Assembly: GCA_902784805.1 (NCBI GenBank)
Contig: CACZWD010000017.1
Coordinates: 1-55,747, forward strand
Length of the DNA stretch: 55,747 nt
Direction of reading: 5' to 3'
From: an uncultured Ruminococcus sp.
Lineage (GTDB): Bacteria > Bacillota > Clostridia > RUG12999
Position numbers and translations under genes: made by a program. The notes beneath the pieces were generated by a model. That model searched no databases and was not told the origin of the DNA. It saw only the letters and a list, made by a program, of their open reading frames with translations. The stretch's first letter is position 1. Each line of letters starts with the position of its first letter. Positions 12,821 to 37,939 of this stretch are shown piece by piece.

Positions 12821-14293
12821 ATGAAATATTTACTTGGTATTGATTTCGGCGGCGGCGCGTCAAAAGCGACTTTGCTTTCATCGGAGGGCGAAGTGTGCGC
12901 TACGCACACTACCGAATATCCGACATATTATCCGGAGCCCGGCTATGCGGAGCAGCTTCCGTCCGACTGGGTAAAGGCAACCGTGGAAAATATTTCGGGC
13001 ATATTGTCGGAAAGCGGAGTGAATCCCGAAGATATAATTGCCGTTTCACTTGATGCCGCGACTCATACAGCGGTTATTACGGACGAGAATTTTAATGTTA
13101 TTCGTCCCGCGATATATTGGACCGATACAAGAAGCACGAAGGAAGTCCGCTTTTTAAAAGAAAATTACGGTGAAATTATAGAAAAGCAGGTGCTTCATAA
13201 GCCGGATACAATCTGGTCACTGCCGGAGCTTTTGTGGATAAAAAATAACGAGCCGGAAAACTGGAGCAAGGTACGGAAAATTCTTTTTGCTAAGGATTAT
13301 GTACGCCATACGCTGACAGGCGACTATGTTACGGATTACATAGAAGCCGAAGGCAGTATGATGTTTGATATAGAGAAAATGTGTTGGAGCGAGGAGCTTT
13401 GCGGCGTGCTTGAAATAAGTACGGATATTATGCCGAAGCTTGTAAAACCTACCGATACCATCGGCAGTATAACGGCGGAAGCGGCAAAGCTTACAGGGCT
13501 TAAAGAAGGTACAAAAGTTATTTGCGGCACTACCGATACGGTTATGGAGGTCTTTGCTTCGGGAGCGGTATCAAAAGGACAGATGACAATTAAGCTTGCA
13601 ACAGCGGGAAGAATTTGCGTTATAACCGATAAGCCTTATCCCGATATTAACCTTATAAATTATTCTCATATTGAAGACGGCCTTTTTTATCCCGGTACGG
13701 CAACAAAATCCTGTGCCGCTTCATACAGATGGTTCAGGGATACCTTTGGCGGTGATTATTCGGAGCTTGACAGCGGCGCCGAAAATGTGCCGATAGGCTC
13801 TGACGGGCTTATTTTTCATCCGTATTTAAACGGTGAGCTTACGCCTTACGCAAACCCGAAGCTTTGCGCTGATTTTGTAGGAGTCCGCGCGTTTCATACA
13901 AAGGCGCATTTTACAAGAGCGGTGCTTGAGGGGGTTGTTATGTCGATGCTTGACTGCAAAACGGCGCTCGACAGCCTTAATATCGAGCATTCGGACCGTG
14001 CGGCAATTATAGGCGGCGGCGGAAAAAGCCCGCTTTGGAGGCAGATGCTTTCGGACGCTCTCGGTTTTAAGCTTGTCACGATGAAATATGCCGATTCTTC
14101 TTTTGGCAGCGCAATGCTTGCCGGTGTTGCAGCAGGCGTATTTGAAAGCCCGGAGAAGGCAGTTGAAAAATGTAATAAGGTTGTAAGCGAAACCTTGCCA
14201 AACCTTGAAAATACCGAAAAATACAAGGAGCTGTTTAAAAAATATAAAGCAGTTCAAAAAGCGCTTGAACCGATATATGAGGGTAGATACTAA
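12821..14293 (+). CDS. FGGY-family carbohydrate kinase (xylulokinase-like)
   Basis: LGIDFGG, AEQ.P.DW, PYLNGELTP, RAVLEGV and GGGGKSPLWRQ motifs. Confidence 0.93.
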   Translation: MKYLLGIDFGGGASKATLLSSEGEVCATHTTEYPTYYPEPGYAEQLPSDWVKATVENISGILSESGVNPEDIIAVSLDAATHTAVITDENFNVIRPAIYWTDTRSTKEVRFLKENYGEIIEKQVLHKPDTIWSLPELLWIKNNEPENWSKVRKILFAKDYVRHTLTGDYVTDYIEAEGSMMFDIEKMCWSEELCGVLEISTDIMPKLVKPTDTIGSITAEAAKLTGLKEGTKVICGTTDTVMEVFASGAVSKGQMTIKLATAGRICVITDKPYPDINLINYSHIEDGLFYPGTATKSCAASYRWFRDTFGGDYSELDSGAENVPIGSDGLIFHPYLNGELTPYANPKLCADFVGVRAFHTKAHFTRAVLEGVVMSMLDCKTALDSLNIEHSDRAAIIGGGGKSPLWRQMLSDALGFKLVTMKYADSSFGSAMLAGVAAGVFESPEKAVEKCNKVVSETLPNLENTEKYKELFKKYKAVQKALEPIYEGRY

Positions 14294-31751: not shown

Positions 31752-32360
31752 ATGAAAAAATTATTGGCACTTTTATTGTTGGGCGTGATGATATTTTCAC
31801 TTGCGGCATGCGGCGAAAAAACAGATGTTTCAAATGACGGACCGAACAGCACTGTAAGCGAAGACGACGAAGATGTTGTAAAGGAAATCAAGATGGTTTA
31901 CGGCGACGATGAAACACCGATTACACTTCATAAGCCGAAAAACGCGTCGTTTACATTAGGCGCCGACAATCCCGAAGACGCCGGAGACCTTGTTGGACTT
32001 TCAGCCGACGACTATTCCTGGGACGCAGAAGTTATGGGATATAAAAACTATGGCGATATCGGAAGCAACGAGCCTTTTGTTGAATATTATTTCCTTGGCA
32101 AAGTTGTATCTGAGGATTACGAATCATATAATGAAGAAGCTGTCGAGCTTGGTATAAGCTACGAGGGTAAACCCGTAAAAGCTATCAGATACACATATAA
32201 AACAACCGATGATGACGAGGAATATTCGGAGTGTTTTGTAGGTTTTGAGTATGAAGGCAGTGATGACAGCGGTCTTATGGGAATTAAAATAGGCGATTTT
32301 GACGAGGACCTTTCGGACAGTGAGCTTAAAGAATTGTTCAGTGAGCTTTTTGGACTTTAA
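31752..32360 (+). CDS. Acidic lipoprotein of unknown function
   Basis: MKKLLALLLLGVMIFSLAAC lipobox. Asp/Glu-rich mature region. Confidence 0.85.
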   Translation: MKKLLALLLLGVMIFSLAACGEKTDVSNDGPNSTVSEDDEDVVKEIKMVYGDDETPITLHKPKNASFTLGADNPEDAGDLVGLSADDYSWDAEVMGYKNYGDIGSNEPFVEYYFLGKVVSEDYESYNEEAVELGISYEGKPVKAIRYTYKTTDDDEEYSECFVGFEYEGSDDSGLMGIKIGDFDEDLSDSELKELFSELFGL

Positions 32361-32428
32361 AATTAATAATAATACGGGAAAAGAAAATTTATGAAAAAAT
32401 ATCCCGAATAAACGAATAAAATTAAAGG

Positions 32429-32464
32429 CGGGCGGCACAGTTTTCTTTGAAACCGTGCCGCCCG
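32429..32464. terminator. Hairpin between convergent genes
   Basis: CGGGCGGCAC...GTGCCGCCCG. Confidence 0.7.
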
Positions 32465-32481
32465 ATTATATATACCGAAAG

Positions 32482-32886
32482 TTACATAAGTATTCCGGCT
32501 TTTTTTAACACATCAAGCGCAAGATTGTTGTTTTCAACACGAAGAACAATGCAGGCACTGCCTTTTTCACGGGAGAAGAAGGCGTAAGAGTATTTAATGC
32601 TTATGTTATTTTCGGCAAGCACGGAAAGAATATTCGTAAGACTTCCCGGCGTATCGGGTACGGTCACCGAAAGAACGGTGATAAGCTTGCAGGGAAAATT
32701 GTTTGCCTGCAAAAGCATTGCTGTATCGTCCGGTCGGTCAACAATTATACGGAGTATGCCGTAATCCTGTGTTTCGGCAATAGAAAGTGCCTGAATATCA
32801 ATGTTTTCATCAGCGAGAAGTTTGATAAACTCGGCAAGCTTTCCTGATTTGTTTTCAAGAAATACGGATATCTGGTTTATAAACAT
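32482..32886 (-). CDS. Double ACT-domain protein
   Basis: QISVFLENKSGKL...DYGILRIIVD and VPDTPGSL motifs. Typical partner of paaK. Confidence 0.92.
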   Translation of the reverse strand: MFINQISVFLENKSGKLAEFIKLLADENIDIQALSIAETQDYGILRIIVDRPDDTAMLLQANNFPCKLITVLSVTVPDTPGSLTNILSVLAENNISIKYSYAFFSREKGSACIVLRVENNNLALDVLKKAGILM

Positions 32887-32903
32887 AATTTTTCCTCCTT
32901 TTT

Positions 32904-34205
32904 TTAATAAAGCTTACGGTTATCGATTACACGTACCGCTTTTCCTTCGCTTCTTGTAATGGATTTGGGTGAAACAAGATGAACCTTCGCTGTAATGCCG
33001 AGCATCGCACGAAGAGCCTCAACAAGCTTTTTTTCCATGGCGGAAATATCCGAAAGACTGTCGGTGAAAAGTCCTGTCGGCATTTCAACGTTAATGTCAA
33101 GAGTATCGGTGTTGTTTACACGGTCAACAACAATCTGATAGTTTGCGCTCATTCCGTTGTTTAAAAGGACGGTTTCAATCTGTGACGGGAACACATTTAC
33201 CCCTCTTATAATGAGCATATCATCAGAACGTCCCATCGGTTTTGACATACGTACATGTGTACGTCCGCAGGAACAGGGTGCGTCATTTAAAACGCATATG
33301 TCACGGGTGCGGTAACGAATCATCGGGAAAGCTTCTTTTGTTATAGCCGTAAACACAAGCTCGCCCTTTTGTCCGTGCGGTAAAACTTCTTCGGTTACGG
33401 GGTCAATAATTTCGGCAATGAAATGGTCTTCGTTTATATGCATACCTTTTTGCTCTTCACACTCAAAAGCAACGCCGGGACCGGAAAGCTCTGTTAAGCC
33501 GTATATATCGTACGCTTTAATGCCGAGCTTGTCCTCAATATCGTGACGCATTTCCTCCGTCCATGCTTCAGCGCCGAATATACCGGCTTTAAGCTTTATT
33601 TTATCACGGGCGCCAGTTTCTGCCGCGCTTTCGGCAAGATAAGCCGCGTAGGATGGAGTGCAGCAAAGAATAGTTGCTCCAAGGTCTGTCATAAATTGGA
33701 GCTGGCGCTCCGTATTACCCGAAGACATAGGAAGCGTAAGACTGCCGACTTTTTGTGAGCCGCCGTTAAGACCGAAGCCGCCCGTGAACAGCCCGTAACC
33801 GTAAGCAACCTGCACAACATCTTCGTTGCTTCCGCCCGCGGCGGTAATGGCTCTTGCGCAGCAATCGTCCCAAAGGTCAATATCGTTTTGAGTATAAAAA
33901 GCGACAACACGCTTGCCTGTTGTTCCCGATGTTGAGTGAATCCTTACACATTCCGACAAAGGCTTTGCCAGAAGTCCGTAGGGATAAGCTTCACGCAAAT
34001 CGCTTTTGCTTAAAAAAGGGAGCTTATGTAAATCCTCTACGCCACGAATATCATCGGGAGTAACTCCTTTTTCCTTCATTTTTTCACGGTAGTAAGGCAC
34101 ATTGTCATATACACGACGTATCTGCTTTACAAGCCGTTCGCTTTGAAGAGCATTAAGCTCATCGCGGCTCATTGTTTCAATTTCCGGTTGGTAATAACGT
34201 TTCAA
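32904..34205 (-). CDS. paaK: Phenylacetate--CoA ligase
   Basis: HSTSGTTGK, YGLFTGGFG, DIYGLTE, RYRTRD and GRSDDMLIIRGVNVFPSQIE motifs. TTG start. Confidence 0.95.
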   Translation of the reverse strand: MKRYYQPEIETMSRDELNALQSERLVKQIRRVYDNVPYYREKMKEKGVTPDDIRGVEDLHKLPFLSKSDLREAYPYGLLAKPLSECVRIHSTSGTTGKRVVAFYTQNDIDLWDDCCARAITAAGGSNEDVVQVAYGYGLFTGGFGLNGGSQKVGSLTLPMSSGNTERQLQFMTDLGATILCCTPSYAAYLAESAAETGARDKIKLKAGIFGAEAWTEEMRHDIEDKLGIKAYDIYGLTELSGPGVAFECEEQKGMHINEDHFIAEIIDPVTEEVLPHGQKGELVFTAITKEAFPMIRYRTRDICVLNDAPCSCGRTHVRMSKPMGRSDDMLIIRGVNVFPSQIETVLLNNGMSANYQIVVDRVNNTDTLDINVEMPTGLFTDSLSDISAMEKKLVEALRAMLGITAKVHLVSPKSITRSEGKAVRVIDNRKLY

Positions 34206-34234
34206 TTTTCGTCACCGCTTTCAAAAAAATTAAT

Positions 34235-34286
34235 AAAAAAAACATCCACTTCTGATTTTTCCTCACGAAAAACAGCGGTGGATGTT
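34235..34286 (-). terminator. Attenuator terminator in the paaK leader
   Basis: Minus strand AACATCCAC-(CG-CTG-TTTTTC-GTGAG-GAAAAA-T-CAG-AA)-GTGGATGTT then a T-run, ending 30 nt before the paaK start. Confidence 0.8.
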
Positions 34287-34297
34287 GATTTACCGTT

Positions 34298-34381
34298 TTA
34301 AGCCCGTTTTGGAACAAGGCGGTAAAGCATACGATCCATCGCAACCGTAAAGACAAAATAAAAAGAAAATATTCGTTTCAC
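34298..34381 (-). CDS. Putative Phe-rich leader peptide MKRIFSFYFVFTVAMDRMLYRLVPKRA
   Basis: GTG start after GGAAAGGCAGGAAAG. Four TTT (Phe) codons and one Tyr codon within codons 5-11. Lies between the promoter and the terminator. Confidence 0.65.
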   Translation of the reverse strand: MKRIFSFYFVFTVAMDRMLYRLVPKRA

Positions 34382-34420
34382 TTAAGCTTTCCTGCCTTTC
34401 CAAAAAAAATTATATGTTTA

Positions 34421-34449
34421 ATTATACATTATTGTGCATAAAAAGTCAA
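34421..34449 (-). promoter_or_regulatory. Sigma-A promoter for leader-paaK-ACT
   Basis: TTGACT (34449-34444), 17 nt, TATAAT (34426-34421). Confidence 0.85.
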
Positions 34450-34574
34450 GAGTTTTTACAAATTTTTTTAAATTTTTAGAAAAATTTATATTATCAGCGA
34501 TTACGAATTTCCGAAGGAAACAAAAGCAAAATATCCAAATACAATATTTGAATATGTCACCGATAACTAAATAT

Positions 34575-35108
34575 TTATCCTCCAAAAAATAATCCCGAAA
34601 ATAATATGGCGCAAATAACGCCCGTTATATTCGCGAGAAGCGCGCCCAAAACGGTTTTGCCGTTGTCCTTTATTCCTGCCGCTCCGAAAAAAAGCGCAAT
34701 CGTGTAAAAAGTTGTTTCGGTAGCCCCCATAATAACCGAGGCAAGCCTTCCCGCATAACTGTCCGGACCAAAGGCGTTTAAAATATCTGCGGTTATTCCG
34801 AGTGAAGCGCTGCCCGAAATGGGGCGAAGCAAAACAAGAGGCAGAATTTCCGCCGGAAGCCCCAGAAATTTTAAAAGCGGCGCCGCAAAATTTCCTATAA
34901 GCTCAAAGCTGCCGCAGGCGCGCATCATATTAACCGCCATCATAAGTCCTATTATGGAAGGAAGGATTTTCAGCGTTATTTTTATACCTTCTTCGGCACC
35001 CGCAGAAAAAAGTTCGTAAACTTCCTCCTTAGAGCAAAGTCCCGCAACAAGTACAGCGGTTATTACAAACGGAATAATATAATCCGAAATATTTTGTAAA
35101 ACAGTCAT
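34575..35108 (-). CDS. spmB: Spore maturation protein B
   Basis: LVLLRPISGSAS, GPDSYAG and GATETTFYT motifs. Confidence 0.95.
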   Translation of the reverse strand: MTVLQNISDYIIPFVITAVLVAGLCSKEEVYELFSAGAEEGIKITLKILPSIIGLMMAVNMMRACGSFELIGNFAAPLLKFLGLPAEILPLVLLRPISGSASLGITADILNAFGPDSYAGRLASVIMGATETTFYTIALFFGAAGIKDNGKTVLGALLANITGVICAILFSGLFFGG

Positions 35109-35123
35109 AATTACACACTTTCT

Positions 35124-35699
35124 TTAAATTCTATTGCTTTTTTTGAAAGAAATTTTTGAGTATATTACGGCAACAGTAAGTGAACAGAGTGAAGCGCACC
35201 AAATGGGCAATATTATTTCAGCCGCGTTTTCGGAACCCGCAGCGGAACGCATAGCGATAACCGTTGAGGGGATCAGCTGAACAGAAACAGTATTTATAAG
35301 AGTAAAAGTAAAAATATCATTTTCAAGCCGTCCGTCCGATTCTTTCCGGAGTTTGTTTATCGCAGTAAGCGCCGCCGGTGTTGCGGCGTTTCCCATACCG
35401 AGAAGATTCGCGCTTATATTCATAATTATTGCTTTTCCCGCCTCGCTGTCAGGTTTAACATTTTTAAACAGAAAACGCGTTACAGGCTTTAAAAAGTATG
35501 AAACAGCGGCTATTACGCCGCTCTTTTCGGCAATTTTCATTATTCCGTTCCACATACAAATAACACCCAGCAGGCTTATACACATTGTCACAGCGTCCGA
35601 AGCTCCCTCAAGAGCGCTCTGTGCGGTTATGGAAAGTCTGTCCGTAAAAACAGATATGATAAATGAAAAAATTATCATATAACTCCAAAGCTTTGACAT
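35124..35699 (-). CDS. spmA: Spore maturation protein A
   Basis: WNGIMKIAE, ANLLGMGNAATP and SVQLIPSTVIA motifs. Confidence 0.95.
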   Translation of the reverse strand: MSKLWSYMIIFSFIISVFTDRLSITAQSALEGASDAVTMCISLLGVICMWNGIMKIAEKSGVIAAVSYFLKPVTRFLFKNVKPDSEAGKAIIMNISANLLGMGNAATPAALTAINKLRKESDGRLENDIFTFTLINTVSVQLIPSTVIAMRSAAGSENAAEIILPIWCASLCSLTVAVIYSKISFKKSNRI

Positions 35700-35829
35700 T
35701 TTTTTCTCCCCTTTAAACTAAATATAATTGACATTTTTATTTATATGTGCTATAATAAAGCGGTAGAATATTATTTTTCAGGTAAATTTTTATTGTGCCG
35801 TTTGTTTTTGGCGGCGGATTGGAGTTCGT

Positions 35830-36231
35830 ATGACATTTACCGGTATAGTACGTCGGGTAGATAGGCTCGGCAGGATAGTTTTGCCAAAAAAATTAAGGTT
35901 GGCGCTCGGGCTTAAAGAACTTACCGACCCGATAGAAATTTATTTAAACGGCAATGATATTGTCCTTAAAAAATTTACGGAAAACATGTCGGTTTTGGGC
36001 GATTTACGCTGCCTTGACAGCTTTGGCAGAATTGTAATTCCCATTGCTGTCAGAGAATTTTTGGGGATTGAATCACAGAGAGATTCTCTTGAAATTTACT
36101 GCGAAGAAAATAATATTATCTTGAGAAAATTTGAGCCTGTATGTATTTTTTGCGGTGAAAGCGAACATCTTACAAGCTTTAAAGGCAAAAAAATATGCAG
36201 CACATGTTTGAACGAGCTTAAACGAGCTTAA
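35830..36231 (+). CDS. AbrB family regulator with two tandem AbrB domains and a C-terminal CxxC...CxxC
   Basis: GIVRRVDRLGRIVLP and RCLDSFGRIVIP repeats, then CIFC...CSTC. Consensus promoter TTGACA-17-TATAAT at 35728-35756. Confidence 0.88.
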   Translation: MTFTGIVRRVDRLGRIVLPKKLRLALGLKELTDPIEIYLNGNDIVLKKFTENMSVLGDLRCLDSFGRIVIPIAVREFLGIESQRDSLEIYCEENNIILRKFEPVCIFCGESEHLTSFKGKKICSTCLNELKRA

Positions 36232-36309
36232 AAGATAATTTTGGTATTTTTTCCTTTTGTTCCGGATATAATATAGTATAAATTTCCGCACGAAAGGAAG
36301 TAAACCGAA

Positions 36310-36576
36310 ATGACAAAAATGTTTTCTCAAACAAAAAAACTTTTTACGGGTGAGCTTAAAGGTGAGATAAGTGATGAAAAGCAGCTTACGGAGCTTATGC
36401 GGCTTACACGTGAGGAGCTTTTGAGAATTGAACGCAACTATAAAGAGGTTACAGATGAGGATTTGCTTGACTATTTTATGTATTGCCGCCTTGCGGCACA
36501 GCAAAAATATAATTACCTCATAAAGCAATATAGGGCGCATGGTCTGAAAGTTGACGAGCAAAAGGAATGTGTCTGA
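36310..36576 (+). CDS. YaaL/DUF2508 family protein
   Basis: VTDEDLLDYFMY...AAQQKYNYLIK motif. Confidence 0.85.
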   Translation: MTKMFSQTKKLFTGELKGEISDEKQLTELMRLTREELLRIERNYKEVTDEDLLDYFMYCRLAAQQKYNYLIKQYRAHGLKVDEQKECV

Positions 36577-36621
36577 AGCATCTGTCGGTTTTTTATAAGG
36601 TTTGCGGGCGTAATGCCCGCT

Positions 36622-36860
36622 CAGCATGATGACAAAGTCATCATGCTGAGCAGAGGCTGAAAAACGAAGGTATATTTTGTCCTTTAAATCTCGTCGGCGT
36701 ACATAGGTACGGTAGAGGTTTAAAGGGCGGAAAGCAAGCGGCGGCGAAATTTTCTGTAAAACCGTGCCGTTTATATACAGCTAAGCGAAAAATCAATAGA
36801 ATTTTTTATTCTCCAAAATAATAAATATGCTTGCGTTAGACCGAGTTTGTCAGCACTCTG
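36622..36860. mobile_element. MITE-like element copy 1 (239 bp)
   Basis: Ends CAGCATGATGACAAAG...GTTTGTCAGCACTCTG. Flanked by a 19-bp direct repeat TGCGGGCGTAATGCCCGCT (36603-36621, 36861-36879). Homologous to copies 2 and 3 in the opposite orientation. Confidence 0.85.
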
Positions 36861-36913
36861 TGCGGGCGTAATGCCCGCTTTTTTATACATAAGATGAAAA
36901 GGAGGTAAGCGAA

Positions 36914-37939
36914 TTGAACAAATATATATTTGACGAGCCGGAAGATTATATTAAGCTTTCATCACGGTTTATTGAAAAATATTTGCCGCAGGCAGACGGA
37001 ACCTTTGTAAAAATATATCTGCTCGGCATAAAACAATGCGGCGAAAATACAGCGCTTACCTTTTCGGGTATTGCCGCGGCGCTGGGCGTGCTTGAATCAG
37101 ATGTTTTAAGAGCGTGGAAATATTGGGAATCAAAAGGCGTTATAAAGCTGGAAGGCGCCGCGGACGGCGATTTTACCGTAACTTTTCTTTCTCCCGACGA
37201 ACCGCTTAACAGAACATTTCCCGTCATTACGCCGCAAAAACCGAGTTATTCCGCATCGGAAATATCAAAATACGCGAGTGACCATGAGGAAATGAGAGAC
37301 CTTTTAAGACATTGCGAAAAAACTCTCGGAAAAACTCTCAGCTCCAACGACCAGTCAACCGTTTTCAGCTTTCATGATTGGCTGGGGCTTCCGGTTGACG
37401 TCATAACCGTACTGATTACATATTGCGCCTCCGTAAACAAAAAAAGTATGCGTTCTATTGAGCTTATGGCAATAAATTGGAGCGAAATGGAAATAAATTC
37501 ACTTGAAAAAGCGGAACAGTACCTTACCGTTTTGCAGGAAAACAACTCAAAAATAAACAGCTATAAAAGGGCAATCGGTATTTTTGGCAGAGTGCTTACG
37601 AAAGCCGAGCTCGACTATCTTTCCGCCTGGGCATATAAGCTTGCTTCGCCTACCGAGCTTGTTAAGCTTGCGGCAGAAATAACAGCTTTGAACACGGGTA
37701 AAACTTCGCTTCCTTATATGAACACAATGCTTACCGAATGGCACGGTAAAGGCATAAAAACAGCCGCCGAAGCAAGAAAAATGCGAAATGAGTTTAAAAA
37801 CAAAACGGTAAGCGCCGCAAAAACTTCTTCCGCGAAAAACAAATTTTCCGATTATTCACTCAAAACAACCTATGACTACGACGCTATTGAGCAGGCGGCG
37901 TTGAATTTTACAAAGGACAAGCCGGGAGATAATAAATAA
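36914..37939 (+). CDS. DnaD/DnaB-like replication protein
   Basis: FIEKYLPQADGTFVKIYL, DVLRAWKYW and two DnaB_2-like C-terminal domains (YMNTMLTEW). Confidence 0.88.
   Translation: MNKYIFDEPEDYIKLSSRFIEKYLPQADGTFVKIYLLGIKQCGENTALTFSGIAAALGVLESDVLRAWKYWESKGVIKLEGAADGDFTVTFLSPDEPLNRTFPVITPQKPSYSASEISKYASDHEEMRDLLRHCEKTLGKTLSSNDQSTVFSFHDWLGLPVDVITVLITYCASVNKKSMRSIELMAINWSEMEINSLEKAEQYLTVLQENNSKINSYKRAIGIFGRVLTKAELDYLSAWAYKLASPTELVKLAAEITALNTGKTSLPYMNTMLTEWHGKGIKTAAEARKMRNEFKNKTVSAAKTSSAKNKFSDYSLKTTYDYDAIEQAALNFTKDKPGDNK

Follow-up and report, generated by a model that had tools for sequence, protein, structure and literature searches.

What governs the expression of a paaK-like arylacetate-CoA ligase gene that is preceded by a promoter of its own, a short open reading frame (sORF) rich in phenylalanine codons and a terminator? 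This arrangement is found on the minus strand of contig CACZWD010000017.1 (assembly GCA_902784805.1) of an uncultured Ruminococcus sp., a stretch of 55,747 nucleotides (nt) that is hereafter referred to as the window. With a probability of roughly 0.87, the leader is a ribosome-mediated leader-peptide attenuator for which charged tRNA-Phe is the main signal and tRNA-Tyr a lesser one, and it controls a two-gene operon encoding the ligase and an ACT protein. The ligase gene is probably switched on when phenylalanine is short, and from the leader sequence we infer that readthrough depends on phenylalanine.

A preliminary description of this locus had listed a promoter, a ribosome-binding site, a 27-codon open reading frame with four Phe codons and one Tyr codon, and a terminator, and all of these lie on the minus strand exactly where they had been placed. 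The sigma-70-type promoter (34449-34421) is composed of TTGACT (34449-34444), a 17-nt spacer and TATAAT (34426-34421). It matches 11 of the 12 consensus positions, ranks second among 20 promoter-like sites in a scan of 32000-37000, and has similar counterparts at the equivalent position in loci L203, L204, L001, L002, and L018. The Shine-Dalgarno (SD) motif AGGAAAG (34393-34387) is located 5 nt ahead of the GTG start codon at 34381, and is contained in UUUUGGAAAGGCAGGAAAGC (34404-34386), the 5' strand of an anti-antiterminator. The leader sORF (34381-34298) begins with MKRIFSFYFVFTVAMD and has 27 codons followed by a UAA stop, encoding MKRIFSFYFVFTVAMDRMLYRLVPKRA. Its regulatory codons (34369-34349) are Phe at positions 5, 7, 9, and 11, all TTT, and Tyr at position 8 (TAT).

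The sORF also carries pairing segments. Codons Ala14-Met15-Asp16 (GCG-AUG-GAU) constitute the antiterminator 5' arm GCGAUGGAU (34342-34334). Segment 2, GCUUUACCGCCUUGUUCCAAAA (34328-34307), has two alternative partners, namely the 5' strand of the anti-antiterminator and, via UUUACCG (34326-34320), the CGGUAAA at 34295-34289. The shared arm AUCCACCGC (34283-34275) is both the antiterminator 3' arm and a part of the terminator 5' arm. Within the intrinsic terminator (34286-34235), AACAUCCAC (34286-34278) pairs with GUGGAUGUU (34249-34241), and a U8 tract follows at 34242-34235. The terminator hairpin (34286-34241) has a folding energy of -21 kcal/mol and a z score of -5.9, with none of 200 shuffles as good. 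The minimum free energy fold of the whole leader has the SD region paired with segment 2 and the terminator formed. The mutually exclusive antiterminator that had been proposed is borne out, as the 5' arm and the shared arm form 8 of 9 pairs and enclose the UUUACCG/CGGUAAA helix, while the shared arm overlaps the terminator 5' arm. The core helix of the antiterminator contains an A-C mismatch, which is invariant.

These elements suggest the following switch. Transcription would start about 7 nt past the -10 box, and a ribosome would translate the 27-codon leader. When Phe-tRNA is plentiful, the ribosome would cross codons 14-16 and reach the stop codon inside the antiterminator loop; AUCCACCGC would then pair with GUGGAUGU, and RNA polymerase would terminate at the U8 tract. 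A stall at the Phe/Tyr codons 5-9 would disrupt the 5' anti-antiterminator, and the antiterminator 5' arm together with UUUACCG would pair with the shared arm and CGGUAAA. The antiterminator thus formed would exclude the terminator and allow transcription of the paaK-ACT operon. Absent translation, the strand near the ribosome-binding site would pair with segment 2, leading to termination as well.

We then folded the window leader with a ribosome footprint masked from -15 to +12 relative to the A-site, at transcript lengths of 142 or 152 nt, before the terminator 3' arm emerges. With no ribosome, none of the eight antiterminator pairs forms and the SD-proximal strand holds segment 2. Placing the A-site on F5, F7, Y8, or F9 yields all eight antiterminator pairs and all seven pairs of the inner helix. 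With the A-site on the stop codon the antiterminator has 0 of 8 pairs, and the same is found for F11, where the ribosome covers the arm. Hence, the effective sensors are codons 5-9, because a ribosome at codon 11 covers part of the antiterminator arm. The earlier proposal that stalling on the Phe codons frees the antiterminator is therefore upheld in silico for codons 5-9, but not for codon 11.

To see how far this architecture is conserved, we inspected the regions upstream of the 80 paaK loci that are closest among species genomes. Three of them carry a homologous leader (82-85% protein identity): L001 (MRFFSFFAFTSAMD), L002 (MKSSAFRFYFIFPAMD), and L018 (MLFSSFIFKFTNAMD). All three regions, which were picked by paaK protein homology alone, contain GCGATGGAT, TCCACCGC, and a terminator followed by a U-tract. 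The GC content over the matched leader ranges from 39 to 56% in these loci (50% in L001 and 56% in L002), compared with 36% in the window. Phe is kept through TTT/TTC swaps and changes of neighboring codons. The leaders of L001 and L002 are GC-rich and encode some of their Phe residues by TTC, so AT richness does not account for the Phe codons. At L003 and L020, the leader is absent despite equally close protein identity of paaK. A covariance model built from four leaders (R1) found two more in the congener G004, MKRIYYFYFVFTVAMD and MNRIFSFYFVFTDAMD, both ahead of paaK. The preliminary description had made its case depend on conservation of the Phe codons and the sORF in orthologous leaders, and sORF, antiterminator, and terminator are indeed all present in L001, L002, L018, and the two G004 copies.

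Scanning genomes and metagenomes with the exact-core pattern TTTACNNNNGCGATGGATN{25,55}TCCACCGC extended the family. The pattern has 21 genome loci, 14 of which are in metagenome-assembled genomes of Clostridia and have a Phe/Tyr-rich sORF and a terminator; all 10 metagenome loci are true leaders. The remaining seven genome matches (four in Sphingobacterium humi, one each in Flagellimonas, Chryseobacterium, and Opitutus) have no terminator and were rejected as chance or repeat. The S. humi matches (L211, L219, L223, L225) and S. cellulitidis L082 represent a repeated element with ENTFIFTMAMDQFWRIKYSIPCC in one frame and no terminator. One genome has at least four copies of it, some of them at contig ends, and its appearance is that of a mobile or repeat element. 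A looser pattern, GCGATGGAN{25,55}TCCACCGC, was uninformative, with none of 120 checked loci among the matches listed having three or more Phe before the motif.

A second covariance model (R2), which was built from 16 leaders, does not require the exact core and has rough E-values, found divergent leaders in genomes that have an aroB leader. Besides its aroB leader, each of the genomes G151 and G153 has a second one: L258 in G153 (MMKYSAAFAFRSSAMDE) is located before a paaK-type gene, and L257 in G151 (MMMFSAAFAFKRSAMDD) is followed by a contig end. Among 41 relatives of G153, G153 itself counted, R2 matched 14, giving 14 new loci in 13 further genomes. Eleven of these loci are verified paaK leaders (e.g. 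MKSFAAIFFFSRSAMD-stop and MMYSAAFFFSSIAMD-stop), two are pheA leaders (MRKVFGYYYFRNAMDG and MFANSYYYFYSPAMDG), and L269 has no assigned target. Another match, L259, lies inside an open reading frame and was discarded as a chance match of the covariance model.

In total, the family comprises 32 genome loci and 10 metagenome loci, all in Clostridia. By target, the genome loci are divided into 22 paaK-type, four pheA, two aroB, one ABC transporter, and three without an assigned target (L208 and L257 at contig ends, and L269). According to Pfam, a CM_2-PDT(-ACT) pheA gene and then aroB are downstream of the leader in L213, L215, L247, L260, and L261. An aroB gene (DHQ_synthase) is followed by a chorismate synthase gene in L209 and L246; in L221 and L251 only aroB was scanned. 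L224 and L250 have an ABC_sub_bind gene downstream, with a BPD_transp_2 permease gene next in L224. We take ABC_sub_bind to be the family of TrpX-type aromatic amino acid binding proteins. In a PaaK tree (97 sequences, FastTree LG, midpoint root), leader-bearing paaK falls into three separate clades that are interleaved with iorB-linked ones; by regex labeling, paaK is directly behind iorB in 43 of the 80 closest loci.

Across the family, the core is nearly invariant. GCGATGGA is identical in every member examined, its ninth base being T except for a C in L273 (GAC), and TCCACCGC of the shared arm is present in all of them. We folded 20 leaders with a GC content of 45-70%. In each, the antiterminator is closed by the same 8-bp helix (-18 to -31 kcal/mol), AUCCACCGC is present, and a terminator forms (-13 to -20 kcal/mol). 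The terminators use different parts of the shared arm, AACAUCCAC/GUGGAUGUU in the window and CCACCGC/GCGGUGG elsewhere.

The leaders also have the hallmarks of translated regulatory sORFs. Each of the 16 tabulated leaders, whose peptides have 17-27 residues, has an SD-like motif and a start codon, as do the leaders found with R2. We counted aromatic codons in 15 lineage representatives, over the nine codons that precede the F-T-x imposed by the search pattern. The sORF frame has 54 of 135, the two alternative frames have 16 and 22 of 135, and base composition predicts 17%. Without exception, the stop codon falls at the antiterminator or within it, either 18-42 nt after GCG in the tabulated leaders, or right after Ala-Met-Asp or one residue later.

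The aromatic residues differ with the downstream genes. We counted the residues before Ala-Met-Asp by hand, over lineages that are related; the paaK group includes L208 and L257, whose downstream genes are cut by contig ends and which were grouped by peptide similarity. The 21 distinct paaK leaders have 73 Phe, 13 Tyr, and no Trp, the five distinct aroB leaders 8, 17, and none, the five distinct pheA leaders 11, 13, and none, and the two distinct ABC transporter leaders 4, 5, and one, respectively. The paaK leaders are hence Phe-rich (73:13), while the aroB and pheA leaders taken together are Tyr-rich (19:30). Read from these sequences, the regulatory codon mix is one that follows the regulated operon.

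Several results weigh against reading the locus as an attenuator. The antiterminator fold of the window (-22 kcal/mol, 6 of 200 shuffles as good) beats shuffles only moderately, with a z score of -2.05. The core helix is invariant, and accordingly provides no covariation. Cross-pairing of the helix extension is marginal (mean of -5.9 kcal/mol with the own arm vs. -5.0 kcal/mol with other arms, permutation p ~0.05). The footprint used for masking is an assumed value and was applied to the window leader only. Equilibrium folding of the full-length leader always favors the terminator, even with a stalled ribosome. Because the terminator always wins at equilibrium, the switch has to be kinetic, as in trpL; a kinetic decision is normal for attenuators. 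The surveys gave further negatives. R1, with 20 candidates scored per genome, matched only the window genome (G000) and G004 among 151 relatives. R2, with few candidates scored per genome, matched only G000 in 150 class-wide genomes (none of the 149 others), and none of five iorAB-paaK genomes. As only 20 to 150 candidates were scored per genome, these surveys are weak negatives and the patchy distribution is uncertain.

The uniform core raises the question of whether something other than tRNA-limited stalling operates here. One explanation is that the nascent peptide acts itself, with Ala-Met-Asp, often followed by the stop codon, being an arrest or slow-termination motif that works with or without an effector and adds to or replaces tRNA-limited stalling. 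Ala-Met-Asp is in frame in every member and is preceded by a T/S/P-x spacer; 12 leaders end with it and four have one residue more (AMDG in L260 and L261, AMDD in L257, AMDE in L258). Its wobble positions are invariant too, Ala always being GCG and Asp being GAT with but one GAC, which points to a constraint on the RNA rather than on the peptide. The distance from Ala-Met-Asp to the stop codon varies from 0 to 11 codons. Furthermore, a stall at this motif would cover the antiterminator arm and favor termination, and so cannot be the inducing event. We give this explanation only a slim chance.

A ligand- or protein-binding riboregulator with an incidental sORF, for instance one that has Phe itself as its ligand or the ACT protein as its binding partner, has a marginally slimmer one. 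It would account for the identity of GCGATGGA and TCCACCGC over 45-70% GC and all operon types, the ninth base in L273 aside, which exceeds what pairing needs, and for the A-C mismatch kept inside the helix. An incidental sORF is hard to reconcile with aromatic enrichment confined to one frame, with the ubiquitous SD motif and start codon, with a stop codon that is always within or at the antiterminator, and with a Phe/Tyr balance that tracks the regulated pathway. The hairpin interior is not conserved and hence offers no candidate aptamer, and there is no Rfam match. The two partners of the shared arm would by themselves slow its evolution. As the 5' arm is coding in addition, this three-way constraint may suffice for the invariance of the core. 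Nevertheless, Ala-Met-Asp or the A-C mismatch may have a function beyond pairing, such as a tuned kinetic trap, a nascent-peptide effect at Ala-Met-Asp-stop, or a bound factor.

A leader sORF alone is not rare, since a crude filter (at least four Phe in eight residues, an SD-like motif, and a T-run nearby) gives 21 matches in the 1.67-Mb genome; it is conservation and not single-sequence statistics that lifts the leader above chance. That the locus is a chance arrangement without regulation, in which T-rich DNA between genes is combined with a terminator that simply serves the upstream gene or with a simple hairpin in a 5' untranslated region, has next to no probability: those filter matches and the local AT richness of the window speak for it, whereas the whole arrangement is kept in GC-rich relatives, is linked to paaK regardless of the upstream neighbor, recurs ahead of pheA and aroB, and has its terminator downstream of its own promoter rather than at the end of the upstream spmB-like gene.

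The first gene of the operon (32904-34205, minus strand, TTG start) encodes a ligase of 433 residues with the Pfam domains AMP-binding and AMP-binding_C_2. Against the PaaK equivalog model of NCBIfam, TIGR02155, the ligase aligns over the full length (10-430) and scores 515.6 bits, below the cut-off of 646.3. We therefore name it a PaaK-like arylacetate-CoA ligase with a putative substrate. The second gene (32482-32886, minus strand) encodes a protein of 134 residues with a pair of ACT domains (Pfam ACT_8), and the same ACT gene also follows paaK in L207 and L204. The operon ends with an intrinsic terminator at 32464-32429 that has 15 pairs, 10 of them GC. The ribosome-binding region of paaK, GAAAGCGGTGA (34221-34209), is kept in L002, L018, L203, L204, and L214. 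The GCGGUG within it could base-pair with CACCGC in the shared arm, which makes an extra translational layer conceivable.

Upstream of the leader are two Gate-domain genes of the spmA/spmB type (35699-34575). Divergent from them is a gene encoding an AbrB/MazE-fold protein (SpoVT-AbrB type) of 133 residues (35830-36231, plus strand). It is preceded by a perfect sigma-70 promoter at 35728-35756 on the plus strand, which matches 12 of 12 consensus positions and has an extended -10 TG.

The genome to which the window belongs, G000, is 84% complete and has further aromatic amino acid loci under regulation. A five-gene shikimate/pheA operon encodes DAHP synthase (aroG), aroB, aroA, aroC, and pheA. 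It is preceded by a second, different Phe/Tyr-rich leader, MRNFVFTGIYFSFAYFYGKADLCCKD (L240:165-245; C16:12964-13044), with its own promoter and a terminator at L240:286-315. The 3' end of this leader, UGCUGCAAAG, can pair with the terminator 5' arm as an alternative. The leader is kept with Phe/Tyr exchanges in two congeners, and has an F-V-F-T stretch in common with the paaK leader. The DAHP synthase gene has a tandem 11-nt duplication in its 5' part, where GTGCATATGTC occurs twice (L240 ~400-421; C16 ~13199-13220). The duplication puts the ferredoxin-like N-terminal domain out of frame with the remainder of the protein, and may be an assembly error or a real frameshift; the gene is unbroken in G004.

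A T-box at L241:804-1063 has a specifier that aligns as GAA-UAC-A, i.e. UAC for Tyr as read from the alignment. The operon behind it (L241:1092-7556; C16:64503-71255) encodes a sodium:solute symporter, an Amidohydro_2 protein, an AMP-binding ligase of 550 residues, iorA (TIGR03336, 733 bits), and iorB. This gene order suggests that Tyr starvation would induce arylacetate uptake, activation, and then reductive carboxylation. Just upstream of this operon, a TPP riboswitch (L234:532-639, on C16) precedes a Thia_YuaJ thiamine transporter gene. Another T-box, at L236:1501-1753 (C19:36026-36278), has the specifier UGG for Trp and is located directly before a TrpX-like ABC_sub_bind homolog, a family that elsewhere follows leaders of the Ala-Met-Asp type.

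Arylacetate-activating and 2-oxoacid-forming enzymes are thus each under a sensor of uncharged aromatic tRNA, which supports but does not prove a biosynthetic PaaK. The preliminary description had proposed that paaK-ACT works biosynthetically. The occurrence of one and the same cis-element ahead of pheA-aroB and aroB-aroC operons, in two cases in a genome that also has a paaK leader (assigned by peptide similarity in G151), lends this proposal real support, but it is not proven, and what weighs against it is that all of its evidence is regulon logic. We infer that the ligase would feed phenylacetyl-CoA to an indolepyruvate/phenylpyruvate:ferredoxin oxidoreductase, giving phenylpyruvate and then Phe. 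On thermodynamic grounds, AMP-forming arylacetate ligases next to IOR favor acyl-CoA synthesis and hence a biosynthetic role, as argued in PMC13285125. Synthesis of Phe from phenylacetate in the rumen has long been known, as cited in PMC7356843.

In Firmicutes, T-boxes predominate and amino-acid leader-peptide attenuators are seldom encountered. A search of Rfam 15 at E-values up to 10 over 33000-36000 found no T-box, riboswitch, or leader family, giving only meaningless miRNA matches, and a search of L257, L260, L262, and L263 at E-values up to 1 found no leader or riboswitch family. The preliminary description had set the locus apart from T-boxes, and this distinction is confirmed by the same search, as the T-box model has no match here and finds six elsewhere in the genome. 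Like a T-box riboswitch, the leader would sense tRNA charging through a terminator/antiterminator switch, and T-boxes likewise serve aromatic amino acid genes in Firmicutes. Unlike a T-box, it lacks Stem I, a specifier loop, and a T-box sequence, is about 180 nt long and translated, and is not matched by RF00230. Pairing with a tRNA 3' end in the manner of a T-box (UGGA in the 5' arm, CCA in the shared arm) was considered and rejected, the T-box model giving no match and a specifier domain being absent.

The closest parallels in logic are pheL-pheA and trpL of Enterobacteria (Rfam Phe_leader and Trp_leader). They share with the present leader a short open reading frame with clustered cognate codons, the four-segment logic of anti-antiterminator, antiterminator, and terminator, an intrinsic terminator ahead of a Phe-pathway gene, and a stop codon positioned such that a freely moving ribosome prevents the antiterminator from forming. 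In contrast to them, the present leader has no sequence or covariance-model similarity to these families at E-values up to 10, its Phe codons are arranged as F-x-F-x-F or FFF and not in one long run, its host is a member of the Clostridia, its main target is a paaK-like ligase rather than pheA, and its GCG-AUG-GAU/AUCCACCGC core is near-invariant, with one base differing in L273 only.

A candidate uORFC-13-1 of Acholeplasma, described in PMC8632094, likewise combines a Phe-codon upstream open reading frame and an intrinsic terminator with a shikimate-pathway gene, aroF, in a Firmicutes-related lineage; it has at least one Phe codon, which derives from a U run. As described there, it is confined to aroF in Acholeplasma and environmental sequences and has no link to paaK, and it is by this description that we set it apart. 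In two other Firmicutes systems, a leader peptide likewise takes the place of the T-box that is usual in the phylum. One is a His leader upstream of hisS/hisZ in bacilli (PMC2965389), the other a Leu-rich attenuator of ilv-leu in S. aureus (PMC5794164). They differ from ours in amino acid, genes, taxa, and sequences. It was only in 2010 that the first amino-acid leader-peptide attenuator in Firmicutes was reported (PMC2965389). The ligase family is the same as that in iorAB-paaK(-ACT) clusters of anaerobes, for example the Bacteroides IOR with its AMP-forming arylacetate-CoA ligase (PMC13285125); unlike in these clusters, paaK-ACT here stands alone with its own attenuator, and iorAB is on another contig. 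A literature search, which covered texts other than supplements and subscription papers, found no description of a paaK leader peptide or of a Clostridial aromatic leader peptide. The mechanism is classical; the sequence family, its occurrence in Clostridia, and paaK as the main target appear to be new.

Taken more broadly, these loci may represent an undescribed, sequence-conserved attenuator family in gut, rumen, and digester Clostridia, with stand-alone paaK-ACT as its commonest target; together with the Tyr T-box operon it would constitute a regulated arylacetate salvage, and the GCGAUGGAU:AUCCACCGC core may have an extra function. We hold this composite picture only tentatively, at odds clearly below even. 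If it is true, arylacetate would be converted to aryl-acetyl-CoA and, by reductive carboxylation, to arylpyruvate and then Phe or Tyr, a route switched on by uncharged tRNA. By its recognizable core, the family could help to annotate regulons of aromatic amino acids in uncultured Clostridia. In gut anaerobes, the direction in which IOR and PaaK operate, towards phenylacetate production or Phe synthesis, is of medical relevance, a point raised for Bacteroides in PMC13285125. A Phe-starvation switch on paaK, common to pheA and aroB, would be regulatory evidence for the biosynthetic direction here, and an attenuated paaK would fit the known incorporation of phenylacetate into Phe in the rumen (PMC7356843).

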